From Candidatus Saccharimonadales bacterium (lineage in GTDB: Bacteria > Patescibacteriota > Saccharimonadia > Saccharimonadales > JAXHNE01), in the NCBI GenBank assembly GCA_038316995.1, contig JBBQAZ010000002.1, positions 19 to 64,018 on the forward strand: DNA of 64,000 nucleotides, read 5' to 3'. Position numbers and translations under genes: made by a program. Under the pieces are notes generated by a model. The model ran no database searches. It saw only the letters and a program-made list of their open reading frames with translations, and was not told where the DNA came from. Shown in pieces: positions 1 through 54,133 of this stretch. The first letter of the stretch is position 1; each line of letters begins with the position of its first letter.

Positions 1-681
1 GATATTGTCGATATCATAACTGATGTGATTGATGTTGTTCCGGAAAATGCAGTCATTGCCATAAGCTCAAAAATCGTTGCAATAGCCGAGGGTTCTGTCG
101 TTTTGAAAACCTATGACAAAGAAGCGCTTATTGCTAAAGAAGCGGAATATTTGTTAGATCCCAAGAATAGTAAGTACGGTCATCACTTTACTATAAAACA
201 TCACACGTTAGTTGGGGCTGCCGGGATTGATGATTCTAACGGCGGGGAATATCATGTTTTGCTAACACGTAATCCACAACAAAGCGCCAATTATTTAAGA
301 GAAAAGCTTACTGAGCACTTCGGAGTGCCTGTAGGCATTGTAATAACTGACAGTGTGTCTGTGCCGTTGCAGCGAGGTGCTTCGGGCGCTCTGCTAGCCC
401 ACAGTGGCTTCATTGCGCTAAAAGACTACATTGGCAAGGAGGACTTGTTTGGCGACGTTTTTAAAGTAAGTATGGCGAATAGAGCGCAAGGCATAGCTGC
501 TACGGCAAATTTAGTCATGGGCGAGGGCACAGAACAAACGCCACTGGTTGTTGTGTCCGAAATTCCAAATTTAAAACTTACGAATCAAAATCCGACAGAA
601 ACCGAGCTCCGCGAGCTGTACCCAAGACTAGAAGATGATCTTTTCGAACCGTTTTGGCGAGCTGTTGGCTGGATTAAATAA
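1..681 (+). CDS. CofE-like F420-0:gamma-glutamyl ligase family protein (5' end probably outside window)
   Basis: Frame is open from base 1 through the GTG at 25. Motifs ISSKIVAIAEG, GIDDSNGG, ITDS..PLQRG and MGEGTEQTPLVVV resemble the CofE fold. Confidence 0.55.
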   Translation, partial: DIVDIITDVIDVVPENAVIAISSKIVAIAEGSVVLKTYDKEALIAKEAEYLLDPKNSKYGHHFTIKHHTLVGAAGIDDSNGGEYHVLLTRNPQQSANYLREKLTEHFGVPVGIVITDSVSVPLQRGASGALLAHSGFIALKDYIGKEDLFGDVFKVSMANRAQGIAATANLVMGEGTEQTPLVVVSEIPNLKLTNQNPTETELRELYPRLEDDLFEPFWRAVGWIK

Positions 682-5331: not shown

Positions 5332-5940
5332 GTGGAGCCAATAGTATTCGTCAATGAAGCAGGCGTGCCAACTGGAGCAACTGCGCCAAAGCTAGAAAGT
5401 CACAATGAAGAGACAGAACTTCATCTGGCATTTTCTTGCTATATTTTTAACGAAAAAGGTGAAATCTTGGCCACAAAACGAGCAGCAAAAAAGAAAGTAT
5501 GGCCCGGATTTTGGACTAATTCTACATGCGGCCACCCACTTCCTGGTGAACATCTGAGCGATGCAGTCAGACGCAGAGCTCAATTTGAACTAGGGATGAG
5601 CATAAAGGACCTCAAGGTGGTACTACAAGACTATCGCTATACTACTCCAGCCTACAATGGAATTATAGAAAACGAGTTCTGCCCAGTTTTTTTGGCACGA
5701 GCAGACTCGGTGCCATTACTTAATTCAGAAGAAGTTTCAGATTACGCATGGATGCAGTGGGAACACTACCTAAAAAAACTTGAAAATGATCCTAACACGT
5801 ATGAACAATTTGCTATAAATGACGGTCAATCTGATCCGAATATTGAGCGACCGGAGTGGTCTTGGTGGTGCAAAGATCAACTCAAACTCCTAAAAGACAA
5901 CGAAACCTTATTAAGCTACACAAGGCCAACTATTTCTTAG
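5332..5940 (+). CDS. idi: isopentenyl-diphosphate delta-isomerase, type 1 (Nudix fold)
   Basis: LHLAFSCYIFNEKGEILATKRA..KKVWPGFWTNSTCGHPLPGE and NEFCPVFLARA match type-1 IDI signature regions. Confidence 0.8.
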   Translation: MEPIVFVNEAGVPTGATAPKLESHNEETELHLAFSCYIFNEKGEILATKRAAKKKVWPGFWTNSTCGHPLPGEHLSDAVRRRAQFELGMSIKDLKVVLQDYRYTTPAYNGIIENEFCPVFLARADSVPLLNSEEVSDYAWMQWEHYLKKLENDPNTYEQFAINDGQSDPNIERPEWSWWCKDQLKLLKDNETLLSYTRPTIS

Positions 5941-6784
5941 GTTTTGTTGCTTGCCCTTGGTGCACAACGCGTTGAGGGAATGGTATTTCGATGCCTTCAG
6001 CGTCAAAGGCTTTTTTAAGTCGTTTGCGTAGTTCGCCAGTAACAGACCATTGCTTCATTGGCGCTACAGCACCGGTTACCTTAATTATAATTGCAGAATC
6101 GGCAAATTCATCTACACGTAAAAACTGCGGTGATTCAATAATCTTGTCAACCCAAATTTCATCCTTAGCTAGCTCACTACCAACTCTATTTATCAGTACT
6201 TCAAGTTTATCTAGGTCGGTGCTATAGCCAACGCCTATGTCAAGGTTCACGTTTGCATATTCCATAGTCATATTTGAAGCGTAATTTATGAAACCGTTAG
6301 GAATATGGTGAACAACACCATCAAGATCACGCAAAGCCGTTTCGCGTAGTGAAACATGTTTAACCTGTCCCGTAACAGTTCCATTGATACTTACAATATC
6401 GCCGACCCGATACTGGTTCTCTATTAGTATAAAAATTCCAGATAGAAAATCTTTAACTAGTGATTGTGCACCAAATCCAAGTGCAACTCCCAGAACTCCG
6501 GCTCCAGCGAGTAACGGAGCAATATTTACTCCGAGTATGCCAAGCAGTAACAATCCACCAATAATCCACAGTCCAACGCGGATAGATGCCCCAATTACAG
6601 AAATAAGTGTATCTTCACGTTGTTTTTCTTCTGCTTTAGTTTTGTAGTGGTCGGGCTTAATTGCTCTTCGAACTAAGCGCCCAACGATAATCATGGTGAA
6701 TTTTCTAACAACATAAAGTGTGAGTAGCGTAAATAGTGTTGCAACCCAGTGCTCACTAATAAAACTTTGTGTGTTATCGAACAT
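5930..6784 (-). CDS. small-conductance mechanosensitive channel (MscS family)
   Basis: TM helices followed by GFGAQSLVKDFLSGIFILIENQYRVGDIV, the MscS pore-helix/beta-domain signature. ATG at 6784 preferred over TTG at 6802. Confidence 0.8.
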   Translation of the reverse strand: MFDNTQSFISEHWVATLFTLLTLYVVRKFTMIIVGRLVRRAIKPDHYKTKAEEKQREDTLISVIGASIRVGLWIIGGLLLLGILGVNIAPLLAGAGVLGVALGFGAQSLVKDFLSGIFILIENQYRVGDIVSINGTVTGQVKHVSLRETALRDLDGVVHHIPNGFINYASNMTMEYANVNLDIGVGYSTDLDKLEVLINRVGSELAKDEIWVDKIIESPQFLRVDEFADSAIIIKVTGAVAPMKQWSVTGELRKRLKKAFDAEGIEIPFPQRVVHQGQATKPKK

Positions 6785-11509: not shown

Positions 11510-11539
11510 TTGACAAGTGAAACTCCCCAAGCGTATGGT
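11510..11539 (+). promoter_or_regulatory. candidate sigma70-type promoter
   Basis: TTGACA at 11510-11515, 18-nt spacer, TATGGT at 11534-11539, about 40 nt upstream of the ATG at 11579. Confidence 0.35.
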
Positions 11540-11578: not shown

Positions 11579-11776
11579 ATGGCTTACAAGCACACAAACT
11601 CCAAAGGAGTAACATACTACCTTAACAGCAAGTTGGTAACACTTCGCGGCGGTAAAGAACAACGAATTTACTATTTCAGCAAGGACGATCGTCCAGAGGC
11701 ATCTGATCTTCCTGAAGGCATGACTGTAAACGAAAACCCACGGAACGGCTTCCTTACTGTAAAGCGCATCAAATAA
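11579..11776 (+). CDS. small (65 aa) basic hypothetical protein
   Basis: ORF with GAGAGGGA SD-like box upstream and its own terminator downstream. Confidence 0.55.
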   Translation: MAYKHTNSKGVTYYLNSKLVTLRGGKEQRIYYFSKDDRPEASDLPEGMTVNENPRNGFLTVKRIK

Positions 11777-11804
11777 AGCGTAGTACCACTAAGGTATAAA
11801 TATG

Positions 11805-11836
11805 CCGATCAGGGATGAAGCCCTGGTCGGTTTTTT
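11805..11836 (+). terminator. Rho-independent terminator
   Basis: CCGATCAGGGatgaagCCCTGGTCGG followed by tttttt. Confidence 0.75.
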
Positions 11837-11894: not shown

Positions 11895-13469
11895 TTACTG
11901 TTGTTCAAGCTGTGAGGGCATAAGTGGCCCGGCTGTTGTGTCCCCAATGAGACGCTTATACATTAGCTCAGCGCTAATTAGAGTGATTGGCATTCCGATT
12001 CCCGGATTGGTACCGGCCCCTACGTAATAGAGTTTATCAACCTTTTTACTGATGTTGTTCGGTCTGAATATAGCAGTTTGTTTTAGGGTGTGCGCAAGAC
12101 CAAGCGCCGTGCCTTCTTGACTGTTATATCGAGCAGCAAAATCTTTTACACTAAACAGTCGTTTATAGACAATTTTATCTCTTAAGCCAGGCAAGTCCAT
12201 GTCATCTTCCATGGTTGAAAGAATTTTGTCGGCGTATTTTTCAAGTTGTTTCGTGGTGTAGGTTAGTCCAGGAGCAATCGGGACCAGAACAAACAAGTTT
12301 TCATGTCCTTTTGGTGCAACCGATGGATCTGTTTTGCTTGGGTTGCAGATGTAAAGACTTGGGTCGTTTGGCCACTGAGGGTTATCAAATATTTCAGAAA
12401 AATTCTTCTTCCAGTCTTGGCTGAAAAGTAAATTATGATGGGTCAAGGAGGGAAGATTACCTTTTACACCCAAATACATTATTAGGGCGCTGGGCGCCAG
12501 AGTTCTTTTGTCCCAGTATTTTTTAGACTTAGTCCGATATTTTGGCTCTAGTAGTTCCTGTTCTGTATGATGGATATCCGCGTTACTGATTATTATGTCC
12601 GCAAACAGCTCCTTGCCACCTTTGAGTTTTACTCCAACAGCCGTCGCGTCTTTCACAATAATTTTATCTACAGCAGTGTTGAGCTTAAACTTTGCTCCGT
12701 GTTTACGCGCAATGCTCGCAAGCGCCTCTGTTATTTTGTAAATCCCACCCTGCGGGTAGTAGACGCCCATACTGAAATCTATATGACTCATAATGTTATA
12801 AATTGCAGGAGTGTTATAGGGGCTTGAGCCCAAAAAAACTAGCGGGTACTGCATTATTTTTTGCATTTCATCAGTTTTGAAGAATTTTCCTACGTAGCGG
12901 TCCATGTTTGTTAGGACACTTAGTTTTCGTCCTTCAACTGCCATTTCTTTGGTAAAAAAATCACGTACAGAGTCATAGTTTTTATACATGAAACGGTCTT
13001 TAGCGACGCTATATTGATACTCTGCTTGGTCAAGGTAACGCTTTAGCGCATCGCTTGCGCCGGGTTCTAGCGCTTCTACAGTTTTTAAATCTTTACTTAG
13101 ATCAGAATAAATATCAACTTGTTTGTCTGCATCTTTGTAGAAAATTCTATAGCTTGGTCCAAGTTTTTTAAGGTTTAGGTGTCTATGGACATCCTCCCCA
13201 AGAATATTAAAAAAATGCTCAAAAACATCGGGCATCAAGTACCAACTTGGACCCATGTCAAAGGTAAATGTACCTGTTTTATTTTGTTTTCCGGTGGAAA
13301 CTTGCCAAGTGCCATACGTGTCTTTCGATACAGAAAATACACTTGCTCGACCACCGACCATCTCGTTCTTTTCAATAACAGTTACGTCGTATCCACTCTT
13401 TGAAAGCAAGCAAGCAGCACCAAGCCCACCAAAACCAGAGCCAATAATTATGGCTGTTTTAGTTTTCAT
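11895..13469 (-). CDS. phytoene desaturase-family FAD oxidoreductase (CrtI/CrtD-like carotenoid desaturase)
   Basis: N-terminal dinucleotide fold AIIIGSGFGGLGAACLLSKSGYDVTVIEKNEMVGGRA, 524 aa, C-terminal YYVGAGTNPGIGMP typical of the CrtI family. Confidence 0.75.
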   Translation of the reverse strand: MKTKTAIIIGSGFGGLGAACLLSKSGYDVTVIEKNEMVGGRASVFSVSKDTYGTWQVSTGKQNKTGTFTFDMGPSWYLMPDVFEHFFNILGEDVHRHLNLKKLGPSYRIFYKDADKQVDIYSDLSKDLKTVEALEPGASDALKRYLDQAEYQYSVAKDRFMYKNYDSVRDFFTKEMAVEGRKLSVLTNMDRYVGKFFKTDEMQKIMQYPLVFLGSSPYNTPAIYNIMSHIDFSMGVYYPQGGIYKITEALASIARKHGAKFKLNTAVDKIIVKDATAVGVKLKGGKELFADIIISNADIHHTEQELLEPKYRTKSKKYWDKRTLAPSALIMYLGVKGNLPSLTHHNLLFSQDWKKNFSEIFDNPQWPNDPSLYICNPSKTDPSVAPKGHENLFVLVPIAPGLTYTTKQLEKYADKILSTMEDDMDLPGLRDKIVYKRLFSVKDFAARYNSQEGTALGLAHTLKQTAIFRPNNISKKVDKLYYVGAGTNPGIGMPITLISAELMYKRLIGDTTAGPLMPSQLEQQ

Positions 13470-14145
13470 GTTCGTTCTTGAATTGCTGTTTCTCCAAAAA
13501 GATTACTGCAAATATTAGGAGGGCGTATGCAGCTCCTACTCCAAATGGAATTTTCTGAGCTATTCCAGCATTAACTCCTGTCCAAAATAGTAGAATTGCG
13601 AATCCACTATATGCGACAGGTGCTTTGACTCGCTCTGCTTTCCCCCAAAGTATGTGGAGTATTAGCGCTCCAATGAGTCCGCTAAGTAGCCATCCAGCAA
13701 AGTTAATCAATGGAACGCCGTAAAAACTACCAGGGCTATCCCATTTCCAAAATTCAAGTTTTACTATTGCTGGGTCCAACACTACGTCTACAATGGTCGC
13801 GAATATTGCCGTAAGAATAACCCGAGGGAAGTGTCTTGTGAATTTGCTTGCGAGCCAGAATGCTATTAATAGTATTGGCGGATATGCAAACGCTACTGCC
13901 CAAGGAGTTGTGCCAAGTAGTTTTGGACCCAGTACATCCGTGTAGCTAAATCTACCGTATGGAATACCAGTTTTAATTGCTGCAGTCTCAACGGCCAATG
14001 CGTAGATACCAAGCACGACTAAGATTAGGAGTCCAATTAGCTTTCTTTGCTTGATAACGCCGAAGTAACTAGGTAATGCAAAAAGTAAAATCCCAATAAT
14101 TGGGGCAAACGTAGCAATAACATTTGGTATGTTTCCTGGATTCAT
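13459..14145 (-). CDS. carotenoid biosynthesis membrane protein, CruF-like (DUF422/PF04240-type)
   Basis: Polytopic membrane protein with GIPYGRFSYTD and DPAIVKLEFWKWD...GVPLINFAGW motifs recalled from the CruF family. ATG at 14145 preferred. Overlaps the desaturase start by 11 nt. Confidence 0.6.
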   Translation of the reverse strand: MNPGNIPNVIATFAPIIGILLFALPSYFGVIKQRKLIGLLILVVLGIYALAVETAAIKTGIPYGRFSYTDVLGPKLLGTTPWAVAFAYPPILLIAFWLASKFTRHFPRVILTAIFATIVDVVLDPAIVKLEFWKWDSPGSFYGVPLINFAGWLLSGLIGALILHILWGKAERVKAPVAYSGFAILLFWTGVNAGIAQKIPFGVGAAYALLIFAVIFLEKQQFKNEHEN

Positions 14146-14162
14146 TGATACAATTATCGCAC

Positions 14163-15011
14163 ATGAGCAAGTCACAACGAAGTCCACTTTTGCGTATTAG
14201 CCGGCCACGGTTTTGGGGGTATCTCTTTGGTCCGTTTTTAATAGGTATTGCCAGCGCCCCGGTAATTGATGCTTCTGTGCGGCTCGTATTACTAGGGTTA
14301 TTTTTTACATTTCCGGCAAATTTACTAGTCTATGGATTTAATGACATTTTTGATTACGAAACAGATAAACATAATGAAAAAAAGAAAGGATATGAAGGCT
14401 TACTTTCGCCAAAATCTCGAAAACCGCTTCTAAATATTCTAGCGGTAGTTGGTATGGCTGGGATTCTTTTGGTTTTGCCAAGCAGTGTATCCCAGGAGGT
14501 AAAGTGGGCAATGACTGGATTTTACTTCTTTGGACTTGGCTATTCTGTACCGCCAATTCGTGCCAAAACAAAACCTTTTTTTGATGCTTACTTTAACGTT
14601 TTATATATCTTTCCAGCAGTTGTGAGTTACACATTTTTAGCAGGTGAACTGCCACTTCCACAACTTTTCGTAGCAGGCGCATTGTGGTGTGCGGCTATGC
14701 ATGCTTATTCTGCGATTCCAGATATCCGTGCAGATCAAAAAGCGGGACTAAAAACAATCGCAACTGTACTTGGCAAACAAAAAACATTGCTATTTTGTGC
14801 CATTAATTACATCGGCGCAGCACTATTATCGGCATCTTGGCTTGGTTGGTTTAGTTTTGCCGCTTTAAGCGTATATTTGTATATTTTGTATCAGTCGCAC
14901 AAAACAAATACTAGGCAGCAATTGTTCAGATATTATAGTTACTTTCCCATTGTAAATATGTCGCTAGGAATGGCACTATTTTTCTGGATTATACTAGTTG
15001 TAAATAGTTGA
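14163..15011 (+). CDS. UbiA-family prenyltransferase (lycopene elongase LyeJ/CrtEb-like by context)
   Basis: Asp-rich motif NDIFDYETD plus about 8 TM helices. Divergent from the CruF-like gene. ATG at 14163 preferred over TTG at 14124. Confidence 0.65.
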   Translation: MSKSQRSPLLRISRPRFWGYLFGPFLIGIASAPVIDASVRLVLLGLFFTFPANLLVYGFNDIFDYETDKHNEKKKGYEGLLSPKSRKPLLNILAVVGMAGILLVLPSSVSQEVKWAMTGFYFFGLGYSVPPIRAKTKPFFDAYFNVLYIFPAVVSYTFLAGELPLPQLFVAGALWCAAMHAYSAIPDIRADQKAGLKTIATVLGKQKTLLFCAINYIGAALLSASWLGWFSFAALSVYLYILYQSHKTNTRQQLFRYYSYFPIVNMSLGMALFFWIILVVNS

Positions 15012-15017
15012 CAAATG

Positions 15018-15026
15018 TGGTATAAT
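15018..15026 (+). promoter_or_regulatory. extended -10 element (TGgTATAAT), candidate leaderless-type promoter
   Basis: TGGTATAAT at 15018-15026, with only 6 nt between the -10 and the ATG at 15033. Confidence 0.4.
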
Positions 15027-15032
15027 GGCATC

Positions 15033-15290
15033 ATGAATCGAAGTCAATTAGAACAAGTCTTGAACGACAACATCCGAGATCACCAGATAGGTGGTATTAC
15101 TGATGGCATGACCCCAGAACAAGCATCTGATATTGGATTTGATACACCTGCGACAATAGAAGAAACATTAAAAAACATTTCTGAACGTAAAGTGGCCATT
15201 GCTCGATCTCTTGGTGGAGTTGTTTGTGGCGACTGCGGAAAAGTTTTTCCATGCCCGCACGGTGACGGTAAGCAAACTTTCGGAAATTAG
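15033..15290 (+). CDS. hypothetical protein (85 aa) with CGDCGKVFPCPHG motif
   Basis: ORF 15015-15290. The first codons coincide with the -10 box, so the ATG at 15033 is preferred. Confidence 0.45.
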   Translation: MNRSQLEQVLNDNIRDHQIGGITDGMTPEQASDIGFDTPATIEETLKNISERKVAIARSLGGVVCGDCGKVFPCPHGDGKQTFGN

Positions 15291-15291
15291 C

Positions 15292-16128
15292 ATGCCAAAA
15301 CAATTTTCCACAGGCATCTCGCCTGAACAGCATCATGAATTAATGGTTTCACAGGATGCTCGCGAGGAAAGACGACAAGAAATATTAGCTCAACTCCCGG
15401 TTGGGCCTGGAATGATTATTAGAGGACGTTCTCGAGATTTTACACAAAGTCTATATCCGCCAATGCCACTCTCGGATGGATTAATTGAAGATTTAGGTCT
15501 GCGTTTTCAGAAAATTGGGGGGATTATTACGAGCAAATTTACAGAAAATATACCCGTGCTTGAAAGCAGAGAGAAATACGAAACATATGTCACGGGTGGC
15601 AACAGGAACAACAAGCGCTACGAGACGGATCCGCTGGAAAAAAAGCAGGCGAATCTGGCTCGACAACGCCAAACGCAGCACGTTAGTGACAGGTTGCATC
15701 GTGAAACATGGCTAGAATGGCAGACTTCAAAGGTGTTAGGGGCAGCTACGAGCCGGGTTAAGCGCGATATAAAGCTGGGCAGAACGTTAAATGAAACGGC
15801 AGCTCATATTTCAGCGGCAGCGCTTGAGGATTTTGGACATTCATTGCTAGAAAGCGACTCATACCGCGAAATACATAACGGTGGAATTATTGCCCGGAGA
15901 ATTATTGAAACCGCATTACACGGTGCGGAAGACCACTCAATCCTAGCAGCAAATCCACCGGTCCTATTTTTACTCGTACAGCGTGAACAGGAGCGCAGAG
16001 AACAGCTTTGGGGCGATATGCTGGACTTGTACGAACAAGATGAATGGGGCGGTAATCGTAGAAGCTCTAATGACATAAGTGATGAACAAGTTAATCAGGA
16101 ATTGATAGTTAGCCTGAATGCATCGTAG
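15292..16128 (+). CDS. hypothetical protein (278 aa)
   Basis: ATG at 15292 lies 1 nt after the upstream stop (operon-like). No domain recognised. Confidence 0.5.
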   Translation: MPKQFSTGISPEQHHELMVSQDAREERRQEILAQLPVGPGMIIRGRSRDFTQSLYPPMPLSDGLIEDLGLRFQKIGGIITSKFTENIPVLESREKYETYVTGGNRNNKRYETDPLEKKQANLARQRQTQHVSDRLHRETWLEWQTSKVLGAATSRVKRDIKLGRTLNETAAHISAAALEDFGHSLLESDSYREIHNGGIIARRIIETALHGAEDHSILAANPPVLFLLVQREQERREQLWGDMLDLYEQDEWGGNRRSSNDISDEQVNQELIVSLNAS

Positions 16129-18851: not shown

Positions 18852-18927
18852 TGGTGGGGGCGGTAGGATTTGAACCTACGACCAATCAGTTATGAGCCGA
18901 CTGCTCTAACCACTGAGCTACGCCCCC
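18852..18927 (-). tRNA. tRNA with CAT anticodon (elongator Met or lysidine-modified Ile2)
   Basis: The reverse complement folds as a cloverleaf: GGGGGCG acceptor, GCTC/GAGC D-stem (C11:G24), CTCATAA loop, GTAGG-TTCAAAT-CCTAC T-arm, encoded CCA. Confidence 0.85.
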
Positions 18928-27490: not shown

Positions 27491-28906
27491 CTATATACGC
27501 CTAAGTAGTTGCAAAAGCTTTCCCTTAAAGCCAGTCGTTGCCTCTTCGATCACAAAATCAGCCGCGAGTTGTTTGAGGGCTATACCAATGGTTGGATAAG
27601 TAAATATGGTCTTGCTAAGATCCTGAACTGTTGCGTGTTTTTTGACGAAAGAAAGCAAGTTGATAATTTCAGAAGCGTTTTCGCCAACAATTGTTGCACC
27701 AAGTAGGGTCCCTTTAGGTGTTACGAGCAGCTCTATGAATCCGTCTGCATTATCAGTTACTGGCTTATCTATATGATCGTAGTTTGTGCGCAGTTTTTTA
27801 AAGGCGATTTTGTCAGATTCAAGACTAGTTGTCGTGTGTCCAATGTGGGCAATTTCTGGGGTGGTGAATGTTGCCCATGGAATATCGTTCACCGCAGGGT
27901 TAGAGCTAGAAAAACCATAAAGTGCATGTTGGACTACTTTTGCAGCCTGCTCTCCGGCTGCATGGGTAAACTGAACGCCTCCATTACAGTCACCAACTGC
28001 GTAGATGTTTTTACTACTAGTCCTAAGTTTCTCATCAACCACAATCCCACGCTTATTAACGGATACCCCAGCTGCATCCAGTCCACTTGGTAAATTCGGC
28101 TGCCTACCAGTTGCAATCAAAAGATGTGATGATGAGATGGCTTTTTCTTCTTCGTTTTGTTTATAAAAAGTACTTATACTATCCGCTTGTTTTGTGATTT
28201 TTGACGCATTTGCATTTGTGATTACGGATACTCCCATGTCGAGCATGCTTTTTGTAAGTATTTCAGAAACGTATTGCTCTTCACGCGGGAGTAATCTGTC
28301 ACTACTTTGTAAAATCGTGACTTTCGACCCGAGCATGGCAAATGCTTGACCTAGCTCGCACCCTATTGGTCCACCACCAATTACCGTAAGTGACTGAGGT
28401 AATTCAGTAATATCAAATACAGTTTCATTTGTGAGATAGTTTATTGCTTCTATTCCATCTATTTTAGGAACAAATGCCGACGAACCAGTAGCGATAACTA
28501 TTTTCTTTGATTTAAGAGCTTGTTGATTTACGCTAACAGTTTCTTTATCCATTAATACTACTTCACCGTGAAAAACGTCTATTCCAAGTTGAGTAAAATA
28601 GTCGTCGTTGTCATGCGTACGTTCAATATGTTTTCTTGTTTGATTAATATGTTGTTTCACTTTTTTAAAATCACAGATTATGTCTGCACCAGTTGAGTAT
28701 TTGTTTTGTTTTGCACTCCAAATCGTTCTCGATGCGTGAATGAGTGATTTACTTGGAACGCACCCAGTATGCAGACATTCACCACCAAGTGAGTCAGATT
28801 TTTCTATTAATGCGACTGAGGCGCCAAGTTTAACAGCAGTTTCTGCAGCAACAAGTCCTCCTGAGCCAGCTCCTATAACAATAAGGTCATATATGGAAGT
28901 TTTCAT
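27491..28906 (-). CDS. class-I pyridine nucleotide-disulfide oxidoreductase, divergent C-terminus
   Basis: GAGSGGLVAA FAD fold and GGECLHTGCVPSK redox centre. The usual C-terminal H-x4-E position reads FTYPTIGIA. Confidence 0.75.
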   Translation of the reverse strand: MKTSIYDLIVIGAGSGGLVAAETAVKLGASVALIEKSDSLGGECLHTGCVPSKSLIHASRTIWSAKQNKYSTGADIICDFKKVKQHINQTRKHIERTHDNDDYFTQLGIDVFHGEVVLMDKETVSVNQQALKSKKIVIATGSSAFVPKIDGIEAINYLTNETVFDITELPQSLTVIGGGPIGCELGQAFAMLGSKVTILQSSDRLLPREEQYVSEILTKSMLDMGVSVITNANASKITKQADSISTFYKQNEEEKAISSSHLLIATGRQPNLPSGLDAAGVSVNKRGIVVDEKLRTSSKNIYAVGDCNGGVQFTHAAGEQAAKVVQHALYGFSSSNPAVNDIPWATFTTPEIAHIGHTTTSLESDKIAFKKLRTNYDHIDKPVTDNADGFIELLVTPKGTLLGATIVGENASEIINLLSFVKKHATVQDLSKTIFTYPTIGIALKQLAADFVIEEATTGFKGKLLQLLRRI

Positions 28907-31281: not shown

Positions 31282-31593
31282 ATGATAAATTTACTTTTAA
31301 AACTCCATATAGTTTCGGCGATTATCGTCTGGTCCATCTCCGTTTATTCATTCTATGCTTATTCTTCAATTAGTAATCGTAATCTATTGATTACTTTGCG
31401 TAGGTTACTAATTACGGGCCTGGCATCTAGTAGCTTACTCGGCTTTGCTTTTGCACTGTCTAAAGGTAATTTAAGTCTAGGGGTATGTGCCAAAATTGGG
31501 CTATATATGGCTCCTGTTTTGCTAGCTACGTATCTCATGCAGGCAAAAATTAATGCCATGAATCGGCTGATCGTAGAAGAACATGAATCTTGA
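31282..31593 (+). CDS. small membrane protein (3 TM), hypothetical
   Basis: 103-aa hydrophobic ORF overlapping the next gene by 11 nt. Confidence 0.45.
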   Translation: MINLLLKLHIVSAIIVWSISVYSFYAYSSISNRNLLITLRRLLITGLASSSLLGFAFALSKGNLSLGVCAKIGLYMAPVLLATYLMQAKINAMNRLIVEEHES

Positions 31594-32905
31594 TATACGT
31601 AGAAAGTTATTCTACGTACTTTACTTTTTGCAAATATTTTTTCTTATCTTTGTTTGGTGGCAAAATAGCGGTCCGCGTGTAAAAATTGGTGGAGGTCAGG
31701 CCCTTATTTCACTTGGTGGATTATTTGGTTTAATGGCTGGATTCTTTTTTCTTTATCAAATGATACTTATTAGCGGGACTAAGTTTTTTGAAAGATCGTT
31801 TGGACTTGATAGACTGGCAAGAATTCACCATACAACTGGATTAGTTGGTTATGGATTTTTGATAGCACACGTACTGTTTATTATTACTGGATATATGGCA
31901 TTGACTGGAAATAACTTTATTGCACAGTATTTTGAACTAAAGAACTCTCTCCCATATATTCTACTCGCGACTATATCTTTGATTCTTCTTGATTTGGTTA
32001 TTGTCACCTCAATTGTAATAGTCCGAAAACGTCTTAAATATGAGTTCTGGTATTTCGTACATTTATTAGTTTATTTTGCAGTACTTTTAGCTTTTTTCCA
32101 TCAGGTCGCAAACGGGCAAAACTTATTGTCTAGTAAAGAGTTGCGCACGTACTGGTATGGTCTTTATTTCGCAGCATTTGGCTTAGTTTTGTGGCGCAGA
32201 TGGTTTTTGCCGATTTATTTAGAGTTTAAGTTTAAATTCCGAGTGAAAAAAGTTGTCAGAGAAAATAATTCAGTTGTGTCTATATACGTTGAGGGAAAAG
32301 ATATCTCACGTTTTAAATATGATGCCGGACAGTTCAATCTATGGCAGTTTTGGCAAAAAGGTTTACGAACCATGCATCATCCGTTCACTATTTCATCTAG
32401 TCCAGGTGATTCGTATCTTAGATTGTCGGCTAAAGCAATCGGTGACTTCACCAAGAAACTTGATAAGCTAGAAAAAGGAACCCCAGTACTGATAAGTGGG
32501 CCTTACGGATTATTTTCTAACCGGGTAAGCACAAGAAAAAACCGGCTTTTTATTGCTGGCGGTATTGGCATTACTCCAATTCTATCAATCTTACGTTCTG
32601 GTGTTCAGCCAAATGATGTATTGATTTATGCCGCCCAAACTATAGATGATGCGGTGTTTTCAGACGTGTTTTTAAAGCTCAAGGAGAAGGGTTTAAAAAC
32701 TATATTTGTACTTAGTCAGGAAAAAGTTAAAGGTACGTACGAAGGTTATTTGAGTGGAGAAATTCTAGACAAAGAGATCAATGGACTAAAAGACCGAGAT
32801 ATTTGGCTGTGTGGTCCTCCGCCGATGATGAAAGCTGTAGAAAAATTATTAGACGAAAGAAAGATGCCAAAGTCACAAATTCATACTGAGAAATTCCGCC
32901 TTTAA
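31583..32905 (+). CDS. ferric-reductase/NADPH-oxidase-like flavocytochrome (FRD TM domain + FAD + NAD(P)H domains)
   Basis: 6-TM N-domain with paired His (HHTTGL..FLIAH; FWYFVHLLVY..FFH), FAD motif HHPFTISS, NAD motif IAGGIGITP, C-terminal CGPPPM. Confidence 0.75.
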   Translation: MNLDIRRKLFYVLYFLQIFFLIFVWWQNSGPRVKIGGGQALISLGGLFGLMAGFFFLYQMILISGTKFFERSFGLDRLARIHHTTGLVGYGFLIAHVLFIITGYMALTGNNFIAQYFELKNSLPYILLATISLILLDLVIVTSIVIVRKRLKYEFWYFVHLLVYFAVLLAFFHQVANGQNLLSSKELRTYWYGLYFAAFGLVLWRRWFLPIYLEFKFKFRVKKVVRENNSVVSIYVEGKDISRFKYDAGQFNLWQFWQKGLRTMHHPFTISSSPGDSYLRLSAKAIGDFTKKLDKLEKGTPVLISGPYGLFSNRVSTRKNRLFIAGGIGITPILSILRSGVQPNDVLIYAAQTIDDAVFSDVFLKLKEKGLKTIFVLSQEKVKGTYEGYLSGEILDKEINGLKDRDIWLCGPPPMMKAVEKLLDERKMPKSQIHTEKFRL

Positions 32906-38463: not shown

Positions 38464-38538
38464 CGCGGGGTAGAGCAGCGGCAGCTCGTGTGGCTCATAA
38501 CCACAAGGTCGGAGGTTCGAGTCCTCCCCCCGCTACCA
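38464..38538 (+). tRNA. initiator-type tRNA-Met (CAT)
   Basis: CGCGGGG...CCCCGCT acceptor with a C1xU72 mismatch, A11:U24 in the D-stem, CTCATAA loop, GGAGG-TTCGAGT-CCTCC T-arm, encoded CCA. Only two of the three canonical G:C pairs are in the anticodon stem. Confidence 0.85.
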
Positions 38539-43093: not shown

Positions 43094-45196
43094 TTACAAC
43101 TCTACCCGCCGCAGTAATTGGGCGTTTGCAGCGACAATGATCGTAGAAAGTGACATAACAGCTGCTCCAATTGCTGGGGAAAGCACAAATCCGGCAAATG
43201 ATAGTGCTCCTGCTGCGAGCGGTACGGCAAACAAGTTGTAGCCTGCCGCCCAGAACAAGTTTTGTACCATTTTAGCGTAAGTTTTCTTAGATAACTTTAC
43301 GATTTTACTTACGCCGCGTGGATCGCTACTTGCGAGCACGATTCCTGCAGACTCAATTGCAACGTCCGTACCAGCGCCAATTGCAATACCAATATCTGCT
43401 TGGGTGAGTGCCGGTGCGTCATTTACACCGTCACCAACCATGGCAACTTTAGACCCGTCGGATTGTAATTTTTTCACAACCTCAGACTTATCGCCAGGAA
43501 GTACTTCTGCATAATACTCGTCTAGTCCGAGCTTGGATGCAACCCATTTTGCAACACCTTCAGAATCGCCAGTCAGCATAGCAACTCGCTTACCGGTTTT
43601 CTGTAGTTCCAAAACGGCTTTTTTGGATTCTGGGCGAATAACATCGGCAATCATAAATGCACCAATTGTCTTTTTTTCTTCAATCAGGTAGACGATAGTT
43701 TGGCCATTTTTATGTGCTTGATCACTTGCTACTTTATATTTTTGGATTAGCTCTACGCCCTGTTCTTTGAGCATTTGCGGTCCACCAATAAAATATGTCT
43801 TTCCGTTTACTTTTGCTTTTGCACCACGACCTTCGAGTGCGCTGAAACCTTCTGCTTTATAAGCTTTGACTTTACTGTCTTTAGCATTCTGTACGATTGC
43901 TTTGGCGATTGGGTGTTCGGATTCGGTTTCTATAGCGGCAGAGATAGACAATAACTGCTGTTTGTCATCAGTAACGATATCTACCACTCCTTGTTCGCCT
44001 TTGGTAAGTGTCCCGGTTTTATCAAAAAGGACAACATCAATATTGCGAGCAGTTTCAAGCGCGGAACGCTCACGCACAAGTAGCCCTGCGCTTGCGGCTT
44101 TGCTGGTCGAGATAGCTGTTACTAATGGTATCGCCAAACCCAGTGCATGAGGACAGGCAATGATAAGCACCGCTACTACTCGTTCGAGTACAAAGTTTGT
44201 GTCGGCAGAACCGACCATGGACCAAACAATTGCTGTTATGGCTGCCGCAATGAGAGCGTAATAAAACAAATACTTTGAGGCGGTATCTGCAAGAAGCTCT
44301 GTTCTAGATTTGGTGGCTTGCGCATCAGAAACCAATTTCATGATTCCAGACAATGCTGTGTCGTCTCCAACTTTTGTGACTTTAATAGTTAGTGAGCCAT
44401 TCGTGTTTATTGTTCCCGCAATTACCTCGTCTCCAACTTCTTTATTAACAGCTTTCGATTCACCGGTTAGCAATGATTCATCTACCTTTGACCCCCCCTT
44501 AACAACCTCACCATCTGTTGGAATTGATGATCCTGGGCGGACCAAAACCTTGTCACCAACTTTTAATTCGCTAACTGATACTGTTTTACTACCGCTTTTG
44601 GTTAGTAGCTCCGCTTCATCCGGAAGTAGCTTTGCTAGTTCTTTTAACGCTCCTTGGGCGTTAGATATAGAAGCCATTTCCAGCCAGTGACCAAGCAGCA
44701 TAATTGTGATAAGGGTTGCCAGTTCCCACCAGAAACTCATTCCATTAACAATATTTAGGGTTATCAATGAGCTATAAACAAAAGCAACGGAAATTGCCAT
44801 AGATATAAGCGTCATCATGCCAGGTGTTTTGTTTGCTAGTTCGGCCCGTCCACTACGGAGGAATACCATGCCTCCATAAAAGAAAATTGATATTCCGAAG
44901 AACGCAGATATATAAGTACTTCCAGTAAATGTCGGTGCGCTGAAACTGAGTAGTGATTGAATTGTTTCGGAAAAGTAAAGAACTGGCAATGTTAATGCTA
45001 GCGATACCCAGAATTTTGTACGGAAAATATTGGGACTATGGCCGGCATGCTTGTCATGGTTGTGAGATTTATGGTTTGCATTAATTTTTTTCCTCTCTAA
45101 AGCCATGTGACAGTGCGGGCAGTCGCCGCGTTCATCCTTTATTACATCTGGATGCATGGGGCAGGTGTATTTTATCTCTGTTTCAGTACGCTTCAT
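43094..45196 (-). CDS. copB: copper-translocating P1B-type ATPase (CPH motif, CopB-like)
   Basis: N-terminal YTCPMHPDV...CPHCHMAL metal-binding domain, TGES, TM6 IIACPHALGLA, DKTGTLT, GDGVNDAPAL. Confidence 0.8.
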   Translation of the reverse strand: MKRTETEIKYTCPMHPDVIKDERGDCPHCHMALERKKINANHKSHNHDKHAGHSPNIFRTKFWVSLALTLPVLYFSETIQSLLSFSAPTFTGSTYISAFFGISIFFYGGMVFLRSGRAELANKTPGMMTLISMAISVAFVYSSLITLNIVNGMSFWWELATLITIMLLGHWLEMASISNAQGALKELAKLLPDEAELLTKSGSKTVSVSELKVGDKVLVRPGSSIPTDGEVVKGGSKVDESLLTGESKAVNKEVGDEVIAGTINTNGSLTIKVTKVGDDTALSGIMKLVSDAQATKSRTELLADTASKYLFYYALIAAAITAIVWSMVGSADTNFVLERVVAVLIIACPHALGLAIPLVTAISTSKAASAGLLVRERSALETARNIDVVLFDKTGTLTKGEQGVVDIVTDDKQQLLSISAAIETESEHPIAKAIVQNAKDSKVKAYKAEGFSALEGRGAKAKVNGKTYFIGGPQMLKEQGVELIQKYKVASDQAHKNGQTIVYLIEEKKTIGAFMIADVIRPESKKAVLELQKTGKRVAMLTGDSEGVAKWVASKLGLDEYYAEVLPGDKSEVVKKLQSDGSKVAMVGDGVNDAPALTQADIGIAIGAGTDVAIESAGIVLASSDPRGVSKIVKLSKKTYAKMVQNLFWAAGYNLFAVPLAAGALSFAGFVLSPAIGAAVMSLSTIIVAANAQLLRRVEL

Positions 45197-51853: not shown

Positions 51854-51930
51854 TGGTAGCAGGACCGAGATTTGAACTCGGGACCTCAGGCTTATGAGTC
51901 CTGCGCTCTAACCAACTGAGCTATCCTGCC
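51854..51930 (-). tRNA. tRNA with CAT anticodon (elongator Met or lysidine-modified Ile2)
   Basis: Reverse complement is GGCAGGA-TA-GCTC-AGTTGGTTA-GAGC-...CTCATAA...-CCGAG-TTCAAAT-CTCGG-TCCTGCT-A-CCA. C11:G24 (elongator type); A31/G39 mismatch closes the loop. Confidence 0.85.
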
Positions 51931-52736: not shown

Positions 52737-53245
52737 GCCCGCCATAGCAGAAACTCGGTGTTTTGTATTTTTTCGGCATTGCTGAACGCATGATCAGTTA
52801 AGACACTGCGAAGCGCGCGTCCGAATGAACCATGCCCGACAACAAGCACTGTATTCCCAGGGAGTGAATCTATCCATCTTACTGATAAGTGCGCGCGTTC
52901 AATCAGCGTGTTCAAGGCTTCAATATCTGAAAAACCATCAAGATCCAAGTCGGGTGCGTAAGGGTGGCCTTCGGCTGACCCAAAATCCCGTTCTAGTAGA
53001 AGCCGACTGGTATGAATTTTATCAACTGGATAGTTAATTTCCTTCGCGATAATCTGGGCGGTTTCAAGCGCCCGAGACAGAGGAGAGGTGACAATTAGAT
53101 CAATTCCTAGCTTTATTGCTTTTTTACCAGCTATTTTAGCTTGCTCACGGCCTTCTTTTACTAGAGGAGTTTCAGTTATTCCAGCTATATGGCCAGTCAT
53201 GTTCATTTTGCTGAGTCCGTGTCTGCAAAAATATATCTTCTTCAT
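52733..53245 (-). CDS. histidine phosphatase family protein (phosphoglycerate mutase-like)
   Basis: IYFCRHGLSKMN RHG motif, SPLSRALETA and a later VVGHG. Confidence 0.75.
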   Translation of the reverse strand: MKKIYFCRHGLSKMNMTGHIAGITETPLVKEGREQAKIAGKKAIKLGIDLIVTSPLSRALETAQIIAKEINYPVDKIHTSRLLLERDFGSAEGHPYAPDLDLDGFSDIEALNTLIERAHLSVRWIDSLPGNTVLVVGHGSFGRALRSVLTDHAFSNAEKIQNTEFLLWRA

Positions 53246-53263
53246 AGGTTACTATTATACAAG

Positions 53264-54133
53264 ATGGAAGTATCTGTTAAGCCAGGAAAATATGTCATTG
53301 CCGTGTCAGGAGGCATAGATTCTATGGTTTTGCTTAATCTACTGAGCAGAACCAAAGAATTAGAGTTAATTGTGGCTCATTTTGACCATGGAATTCGCGA
53401 GGAATCGGCCGTCGACGCAAAATTTGTAGAAATGAGCGCCGAATATTTAGGTTTGGAATTTGAAATGTCCCGTGAAGAGTTAGGTAAGAATGCAAGTGAA
53501 GACCTAGCAAGGAAAAGACGGTATGAATTCCTGCAAAATACCCAAAAAAAGTATGGAGCAACAGCAATTATTACTGCGCATCATCAAGATGATGCAATTG
53601 AGACGATGATTATAAATTTGCTACGCGGAACCAATCGTAAAGGATTGAGCGCGCTTAAAAGCACAAATGCTATACGACGACCATTAATTGGATATACCAA
53701 AAGAGAAATTGAACAATATGCGCTGGAAAACAATGTTAGTTGGCGGGAAGACAGTACTAATCAATCAGATGCGTACCTAAGAAACTTTGTGAGAAACAAT
53801 ATTGTTAGTCGATTCAGTGAGCCCACGAGAGTTTATTGGATAAAGACTTACTTAAAAATGCTGAACCTAAATGAACATATAGACCAAGAAATTGCAGATA
53901 TTATGCAAAATGTTGATGTAATAAACCGTACATGGCTAATTCAGTTTCCTAATAACATTAGCTGTGAACTGATTGCAGCACAATTAAGAAAATATGACGT
54001 TTTACTATCTCAAAAACAGGTTCAGGATACTGTTATATTCTGCAAAGTTGCGGTTGTGGGTTCAGAAAAAGTACTGAGTAAAACAGTGAAGTTACTTGCT
54101 AATAAAACATCTGTTAGCGTGAAGCAGCAATAA
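53264..54133 (+). CDS. tilS: tRNA(Ile)-lysidine synthase
   Basis: PP-loop YVIAVSGGIDSMVLL and the HFDHGIR, TAHHQDD motifs. Lies directly upstream of ftsH, as is common. Confidence 0.8.
   Translation: MEVSVKPGKYVIAVSGGIDSMVLLNLLSRTKELELIVAHFDHGIREESAVDAKFVEMSAEYLGLEFEMSREELGKNASEDLARKRRYEFLQNTQKKYGATAIITAHHQDDAIETMIINLLRGTNRKGLSALKSTNAIRRPLIGYTKREIEQYALENNVSWREDSTNQSDAYLRNFVRNNIVSRFSEPTRVYWIKTYLKMLNLNEHIDQEIADIMQNVDVINRTWLIQFPNNISCELIAAQLRKYDVLLSQKQVQDTVIFCKVAVVGSEKVLSKTVKLLANKTSVSVKQQ

Follow-up and report, generated by a model that had tools for sequence, protein, structure and literature searches.

A predicted bacterioruberin-type C50 carotenoid cassette, with no phytoene synthase gene nearby, in a soil Saccharimonadales contig

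How might a small epibiotic bacterium use enzymes that finish a C50 carotenoid when the enzymes that begin one are not encoded beside them? The question is raised by a 64,000-nucleotide stretch of Saccharimonadales DNA (hereafter the window, meaning the whole stretch), nearly all of a 64,131-bp soil-metagenome contig, in which crtI/crtD, cruF and lyeJ form a compact trio. An earlier, sequence-only reading had taken the trio for a bacterioruberin-type module, and curated hidden Markov models (HMMs) recognise the same three families, CrtI/D, CruF and LyeJ. Judging from characterised relatives, the trio is very probably a functional tailoring cassette for a bacterioruberin-type C50 carotenoid. 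The coordinates and gene calls given earlier for the trio and a nearby idi all hold:

5332-5940, plus strand: idi, type-1 isopentenyl-diphosphate isomerase with a NUDIX fold (PRK03759, TIGR02150)
11895-13469, minus strand: crtI/crtD, FAD-dependent carotenoid desaturase, predicted to be of the bifunctional CrtID type (524 aa; second gene of a probable cruF-crtI operon)
13459-14145, minus strand: cruF, predicted membrane carotenoid hydratase of the bisanhydrobacterioruberin hydratase family (PF04240, TIGR03460)
14146-14162, no strand: divergent spacer of 17 bp, TGATACAATTATCGCAC, with two overlapping -10-like elements
14163-15011, plus strand: predicted lyeJ-type lycopene elongase/hydratase of the UbiA superfamily (282 aa; PF01040, NF009516)

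[quoted passage not shown] Its LyeJ is closest (50-79% identity) to proteins from organisms named Candidatus Saccharibacteria or Saccharimonadales, several of them on contigs of 0.2-1.05 Mb. The trio occupies the same synteny in about 20 Saccharimonadales loci, of which some are on contigs of that size; the order common to window and relatives is Mur ligase, major facilitator superfamily transporter, two hypotheticals, a 65-aa gene, the trio, Dus and MauE. Its proteins are intact and 49-81% conserved.

The prenyltransferase is, by profile and tree, of the LyeJ type and not a quinone or heme enzyme. It matches PF01040 at 95 bits and passes NF009516 at 240.4 bits (cutoff 205); the models for quinone, heme and chlorophyll prenyltransferases, including UbiA, MenA, MqnP and ChlG, gave at most 44 bits on this protein. 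The NDIFDYETD motif pointed out in the sequence-only reading is present, and N60, D61, D64 and D68 as well as D187 and D191 are invariant in 24 relatives. For calibration, the prenyltransferases of the haloarchaeal crtI-prenyltransferase-cruF loci reach 426 bits (Halocatena) and 397 bits (Halarchaeum) on NF009516, to which E. coli UbiA has no match. NF009516 can be taken as the LyeJ model because the Halocatena and Halarchaeum gene order equals that of the characterised crtI/crtD-lyeJ-cruF cluster of Haloarcula japonica. A neighbour-joining tree with E. coli UbiA and MenA for comparison, and without CyoE or Corynebacterium CrtEb, places the window protein in a LyeJ-type clade (bootstrap 100) apart from both, to which it is 19-21% identical. 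Its relatives are annotated by the Joint Genome Institute (JGI) as 'lycopene elongase/hydratase'. The open reading frame (ORF) spans 14124-15011(+), and the probable ATG at 14163 fits an identical 282-aa database protein (P0001).

The module had been likened to both haloarchaeal and actinobacterial ones. The first comparison stands, the window module being of the haloarchaeal (NF009516) type. The second stands for the Propionibacteriales (L084) and not for Arthrobacter, whose elongase belongs to NF009608. The NF009516 type is also found in Acidobacteriota, Abditibacteria and CPR bacteria. The likeness to the Arthrobacter/Micrococcales cluster (PMC9122864; L008) is one of pathway logic, crtE-crtB-crtI followed by an elongase; that elongase (469 bits on NF009608) is only about 35% identical, and the accompanying CrtI is less CrtID-like, at 453 bits.

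The CrtI-family call for the desaturase was borne out by TIGR02734 (501.9 bits; cutoff 238) and by PF01593, and its N-terminus carries a GSGFGG dinucleotide-binding motif. By far the best model is NF058655, CrtID, a bifunctional phytoene desaturase/3,4-desaturase, on which it scores 614.9 bits, compared with 649 for the sole desaturase of a complete CPR cluster (L097) and 749 for Halocatena. The protein is 46% identical to the CrtI of the Halocatena crtI-lyeJ-cruF-crtB locus and 64-80% identical to those of its close relatives with the same gene arrangement (type A, defined below). Both activities, phytoene desaturation and 3,4-desaturation, have been demonstrated only for C0507 and D1086 of Haloarcula japonica (PMC11946383), and the window enzyme is predicted to be of this type. 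The sequence-only reading had also listed a lycopene-forming crtI as missing. We see no such gap, since the same type of desaturase is the only one in complete CPR crtE-crtB-crtI-lyeJ clusters. The only steps that are locally unaccounted for are therefore geranylgeranyl diphosphate (GGPP) synthase and phytoene synthase. A lone, intact CrtID-type desaturase was found on a Saccharimonadales contig with the same backbone (L130:8172-9686(-)), adjoining an ABC-2 transporter pair and without lyeJ or cruF; it scores 631 bits on NF058655 and is 55% identical to that of the window.

CruF had been called as DUF422/CruF-like, and it passes the PF04240 search at 144.2 bits (E=7e-42; cutoff 25). Because it falls narrowly below the TIGR03460 equivalog cutoff (146.2 vs 154.7 bits), we file it as a putative CruF-family hydratase and make no claim to the exact equivalog; on NF041333, the haloarchaeal CruF model, it reaches 106 vs 300. 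The ORF spans 13459-14187(-), with a probable ATG at 14145 in agreement with the 227-aa gene calls in two relatives (L001, L003). One relative, on a 942-kb Saccharibacteria contig, has a CrtY-type lycopene cyclase (PF05834) between crtI and cruF (L006:8166-9236(-)), and a second lycopene-cyclase-domain protein (PF18916) 9 kb away (L006:19298-19978(-)). These cyclases suggest that the pathway branches there to cyclic carotenoids; relatives of this lineage have rhodopsins but no blh.

In the window, as in relatives, cruF adjoins both partners. Its stop and the crtI start overlap by 11 nt (13459-13469), which had been noticed earlier and is real, and its start codon lies 17 bp from that of lyeJ, on the opposite strand. 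Within this spacer, TGATACAAT forms an extended -10 element for lyeJ, whose end falls 8 nt upstream of the lyeJ ATG; TGCGATAAT, read on the minus strand, forms a -10-like element for cruF, whose end falls 7 nt upstream of the cruF ATG. Type-A loci retain the core TGnTACAATTAT even where protein identity has dropped to about 50%, and it occurs once in the window against 0.06 expected. Similar TGnTAnnnT elements precede other gene starts in the window by 6-9 nt. The spacer is probably a shared bidirectional promoter that yields leaderless or near-leaderless transcripts. Extended -10-like sites at 6784(-)/6831(+), 17090, 40344, 57731 and other positions, which include a second divergent pair (mscS / sua5-like), suggest that leaderless transcripts may be common in this genome.

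What the cassette might do can be proposed from its orthology to the Haloarcula japonica cluster. The CrtI/CrtD-type desaturase would convert phytoene to lycopene and later introduce the 3,4 double bonds. LyeJ would add a C5 unit from dimethylallyl diphosphate (DMAPP), made by the nearby type-1 Idi, to each end of lycopene and hydrate the 1,2 bond, and CruF would hydrate the added C5 units. The product would be a polar C50 pigment in the membrane, protecting against light, oxidation or cold. The genes would be expressed as a translationally coupled cruF-crtI operon, divergent from lyeJ across the 17-bp bidirectional promoter.

The enzymology assumed here follows Yatsunami et al. 2024 (PMC11946383) and Yang et al. 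2015, as cited there. The Haloarcula japonica bacterioruberin cluster, c0507-c0506-c0505, is crtI/crtD-lyeJ-cruF and has been experimentally characterised (PMC11946383). It consists of the same three adjacent families, and the window proteins match the same NCBIfam models (NF058655, NF009516, TIGR03460) as do annotated genes of haloarchaeal clusters, CrtI and LyeJ being 34-47% and CruF 26-29% identical to their counterparts. The arrangement differs, however: the Haloarcula genes are co-directional (crtI-lyeJ-cruF), while cruF-crtI is divergent from lyeJ in the window. In the two haloarchaeal plasmid loci that were examined crtB is adjacent, whereas in the window it is not, and the host here is an epibiotic bacterium with a genome of about 1 Mb.

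A different substrate or product, such as a C30 or other acyclic polyene, or a pathway that stops at C45 or non-hydrated products short of bacterioruberin proper, is unlikely. It would fit the scores of CruF and of the desaturase, both just under their equivalog cutoffs (640 bits for NF058655), and those of the bacterial LyeJ-type proteins, 240-260 bits compared with about 400 for the haloarchaeal ones. Moreover, cruF is missing from three loci (L005, L027, L063) and one relative has a lycopene cyclase in the cassette, so that end products presumably vary within the clade. On the other hand, all three families stand side by side, with the characterised haloarchaeal trio as their nearest counterpart, and the complete clusters of sister lineages begin with crtE and crtB, that is, with C40 phytoene.

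Where the C40 precursor would come from is the harder part of the question. Locally, crtB and crtE are absent and have left no pseudogene remnant; the sequence-only reading had likewise seen neither in the 64 kb. Pfam scans of 27 window ORFs, nearly all those of at least 200 aa, gave no match to PF00494 or PF00348. Custom HMMs were seeded with Halocatena, Halarchaeum, Thermus, Arthrobacter and E. coli IspA sequences, later with 52 CrtB and 20 polyprenyl-synthase sequences, and run with filters off against all six-frame ORFs of at least 25 aa, with positive controls at 205-600 bits. Across the window and 19 loci related to it (353 kb), all of which sample one syntenic region or about 7% of a genome of about 0.9 Mb, they detected no crtB or polyprenyl synthase, even as a remnant (best E=0.35). 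Two ORFs 3' of lyeJ (15015-15290 and ~15290-16128) were considered as cassette members or as a cryptic phytoene synthase and rejected: they have no Pfam match and at most one weak match in relatives whose LyeJ is 68-70% identical, and the first has its own -10 element.

A LyeJ alignment was used to scan species-representative genomes, and the 80 loci recovered were tabulated with HMMs. In type A, crtI-cruF is divergent from lyeJ and no crtB or polyprenyl synthase lies within 10 kb; it comprises the window, all its close Saccharimonadales relatives and four Actinomycetota, including the cultured Microlunatus aurantiacus. In type B, lyeJ adjoins crtI-crtB, often together with crtE. Type B was found in Acidobacteriota, Abditibacteria, metagenome-assembled genomes (MAGs) labelled Gammaproteobacteria, two genomes labelled Uhrbacteria and six labelled Saccharibacteria. 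The 'Saccharibacteria' labels are those of the depositors, and these contigs have no flanking genes in common with the window; a safer CPR example is a 981,549-bp 'Patescibacteria group bacterium' contig, which, like two further contigs, carries a complete crtE-crtB-crtI / lyeJ (/ cruF) cluster. CPR bacteria can thus encode the pathway from prenyl diphosphates onward. The complete clusters (L097, L098, L099, L036, L073, L032 and others; CPR-labelled, Acidobacteriota, Abditibacteria and 'Gammaproteobacteria' MAGs) share the LyeJ (NF009516) and CrtID types with the window, at 43-66% identity, and the divergent cruF/lyeJ pairing occurs there as well. They differ in that polyprenyl and phytoene synthase genes adjoin crtI, whereas in the window clade neither lies within 10 kb and crtI has moved beside cruF. 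A CPR CrtB profile gave 7,832 matches in a set of 5.8 billion proteins, the best 120 of which all reach at least 400 bits. One metagenomic protein of 435 aa (P0212) contains phytoene synthase (PF00494) and CrtI-type oxidase domains, and may be a CrtB-CrtI fusion or a merged gene call.

The reading that we prefer, tentatively and at somewhat short of an even chance, is a split pathway, with crtE and crtB elsewhere in the genome. In Microlunatus aurantiacus and related Actinomycetota, crtI-cruF and lyeJ are arranged in the same way and crtB is likewise missing within 10 kb; the crtE and crtB of Microlunatus must be elsewhere. A self-sufficient pathway is also favoured by the complete CPR clusters and by the record of Saccharimonadia, at class level and in freshwater, as positive for crtB, crtI and a C10-C20 prenyl module (Chiriac et al., PMC9166423 Table S5). 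The lone intact crtI of L130 is most easily understood if the cell itself produces phytoene.

Several observations pull the other way. Beside the empty local search and the two near misses at equivalog cutoffs, crtB directly adjoins crtI in almost every other lineage with this type of LyeJ, and the pathway genes that the cassette region has recruited, idi and a lycopene cyclase, in no case include crtB or crtE. What is recorded for crtB at class level may stem entirely from type-B (complete-cluster) lineages. The same survey records Saccharimonadia as negative for both C5 isoprenoid pathways and for fatty-acid synthesis (PMC9166423), so that some external isoprenoid input is required on any reading. 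Finally, only one soil DNA run contains the locus and none of the RNA runs does.

Some of these observations suit a second explanation, in which the clade has no phytoene synthase and the epibiont takes phytoene or lycopene from its host, probably an actinobacterium, together with membrane lipids, and turns it into a C50 pigment of its own, Idi making DMAPP from imported isopentenyl diphosphate (IPP). We regard this as a serious possibility, though on balance a doubtful one. Besides the missing crtB and crtE signal where crtB would usually adjoin crtI, the recruitment of idi and cyclase alone and the reported lack of C5 and fatty-acid synthesis, it draws on purifying selection on the cassette, which implies a substrate, and on a proposed precedent in rhodopsin-bearing Saccharibacteria, thought to scavenge retinal from actinobacterial hosts (Jaffe et al. 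2022, PMC9296517). There too the consumer of a chromophore is kept and its biosynthesis is missing, although molecule and genes are different and the absence was established on high-quality bins, here at the level of the locus only. That soil and freshwater Saccharimonadales should practise a pigment piracy parallel to the proposed retinal scavenging is likewise conceivable without being probable. Against it, the searched region is a small part of the genome, free-living Microlunatus has the same crtB-less arrangement, and complete clusters and a class-level crtB record exist among CPR bacteria and Saccharimonadia, respectively. Furthermore, lycopene and phytoene are usually minor intermediates in a host, no uptake system is evident, and the lone crtI of L130 is hard to explain without endogenous phytoene.

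On either reading LyeJ needs a C5 donor. The type-1 idi that had been noted 6 kb from the trio reaches the equivalog cutoffs of PRK03759 (204.2 bits; cutoff 127) and TIGR02150 (124.6 bits; cutoff 105.8), and is the probable supplier of DMAPP for LyeJ. A functional link is supported by two loci (L023, L026) in which idi lies directly upstream of the cassette, compared with 6 kb in the window, and by its fusion to CruF in Acidobacteriota. In two loci of the latter phylum (Pyrinomonadaceae/Chloracidobacterium; L032:8654-10267(-) and L043:8631-9980(-)), CruF (PF04240) carries a fused Idi-type NUDIX domain at its C-terminus, which shares 39-44% identity with the window idi. This fusion ties DMAPP supply physically to the C50 pathway.

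How the cassette came to this clade was addressed with a metagenome scan anchored on the neighbouring dus, so that the sample was blind to the trio. Among the 28 loci that cover the full slot, from the conserved 65-aa gene to dus, the trio was absent from 27. In trio-less loci the slot holds an ABC-2 transporter pair or, in one 766-kb contig, only 59 nt; one locus of the scan retains the lone crtI (L130). Neighbour-joining trees give type-A CrtI and type-A CruF a clade each (bootstrap 100 and 96, respectively), apart from those of Actinomycetota, Acidobacteriota and type B. Identity to the window correlates with that of Dus (r=0.70 for CrtI, 0.77 for LyeJ), and the GC content of the trio (0.39-0.42) and its third-position GC (GC3) match those of the rest of the window. 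Type-A CrtI and CruF are only 42-58% identical to Actinomycetota homologues and 26-47% to haloarchaeal ones. The separate clades, a divergence that tracks Dus and the native GC and GC3 argue for long residence with repeated loss, the cassette being an accessory element that would have descended vertically within one Saccharimonadales clade and been lost repeatedly in relatives. It appears clearly to be under purifying selection, and a substrate must then exist.

The sequence-only reading had raised the possibility that the trio arrived by horizontal transfer from a host. Recent acquisition from an actinobacterial or haloarchaeal donor, as a foreign island that is perhaps unintegrated or decaying, now seems very improbable. 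In its favour are the crtI-cruF / lyeJ order in common with Propionibacteriales, which belong to the phylum of known Saccharibacteria hosts, the variable presence of the trio in an otherwise conserved backbone, and partial versions (L130, L005, L027). A recent transfer from Actinomycetota, which the common gene order had suggested, was rejected on trees, identities and composition; the divergence follows that of the flanking genes, the promoter spacer is conserved across the clade and the three ORFs are intact. An ancient transfer is possible, the deep order among bacterial LyeJ and CrtI clades having bootstrap values below 50. The left border of the slot is the 65-aa gene (11579-11776(+)), whose product (MAYKHTNSKGVTYYLNSK...) is 74-89% identical across Saccharimonadales loci, a conservation far above that of its neighbours. 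Associated with this gene are a promoter-like site (11510-11539) and a hairpin that looks like a strong terminator (11804-11831).

The same three genes have been known from Patescibacteria since 2023, when Haro-Moreno et al. (2023, PMC9948471) described lyeJ, crtD and cruF in Candidatus Patescibacteria of Lake Baikal, among them Saccharibacteria. Its authors suggest that the genes serve membrane adaptation and point to a connection with Actinobacteria; crtB and crtE are not discussed. The genes are partly dispersed in the Baikal Patescibacteria, while those of the window are packed into a tight cassette whose promoter is conserved, and neither the fixed chromosomal slot nor the complete five-gene CPR clusters described above appear in that work. 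Our literature search found no other paper linking bacterioruberin to CPR bacteria.

Much of bacterial diversity belongs to the CPR/Patescibacteria, whose ways of building and protecting membranes are poorly understood. If this genome has crtB, the locus would belong to a split carotenoid pathway of the ordinary kind, in a soil Saccharibacterium that is pigmented, and would be further evidence that some ultrasmall epibionts invest their tiny genomes in photo-, oxidative- or cold-protective C50 pigments. If it lacks crtB, it would offer a concrete and testable case of an epibiont that imports and chemically remodels a lipid-soluble metabolite of its host, and the pigment could mark host dependence and possibly host identity. 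In addition, presence or absence at the slot and the compact bidirectional promoter provide a simple system for the study of gene gain, gene loss and transcription signals in CPR bacteria.

Other genes of the window deserve a brief mention. Its only three tRNA genes, at 18852-18927(-), 38464-38538(+) and 51854-51930(-), are all called tRNA-Met (CAT). A TilS-like PP-loop ATPase (PF01171) is encoded at 53189-54133(+), about 1.3 kb from the third, so at least one of these calls may be a tRNA-Ile read through lysidine. A 440-aa membrane protein (31583-32905(+)) with ferric-reductase transmembrane, FAD-binding and NAD-binding domains resembles a NOX/Fre-like flavocytochrome, which is unexpected for a CPR genome with little redox metabolism. 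A member of the F420-0:gamma-glutamyl ligase family (PF01996, 99.7 bits) is encoded at 25-681(+) in this Saccharibacterium. A heavy-metal P-type ATPase whose N-terminus bears an HMBD metal-binding domain (43094-45196(-)) and a pyridine-nucleotide-disulfide oxidoreductase (27491-28906) hint at metal or redox stress functions in a soil epibiont.

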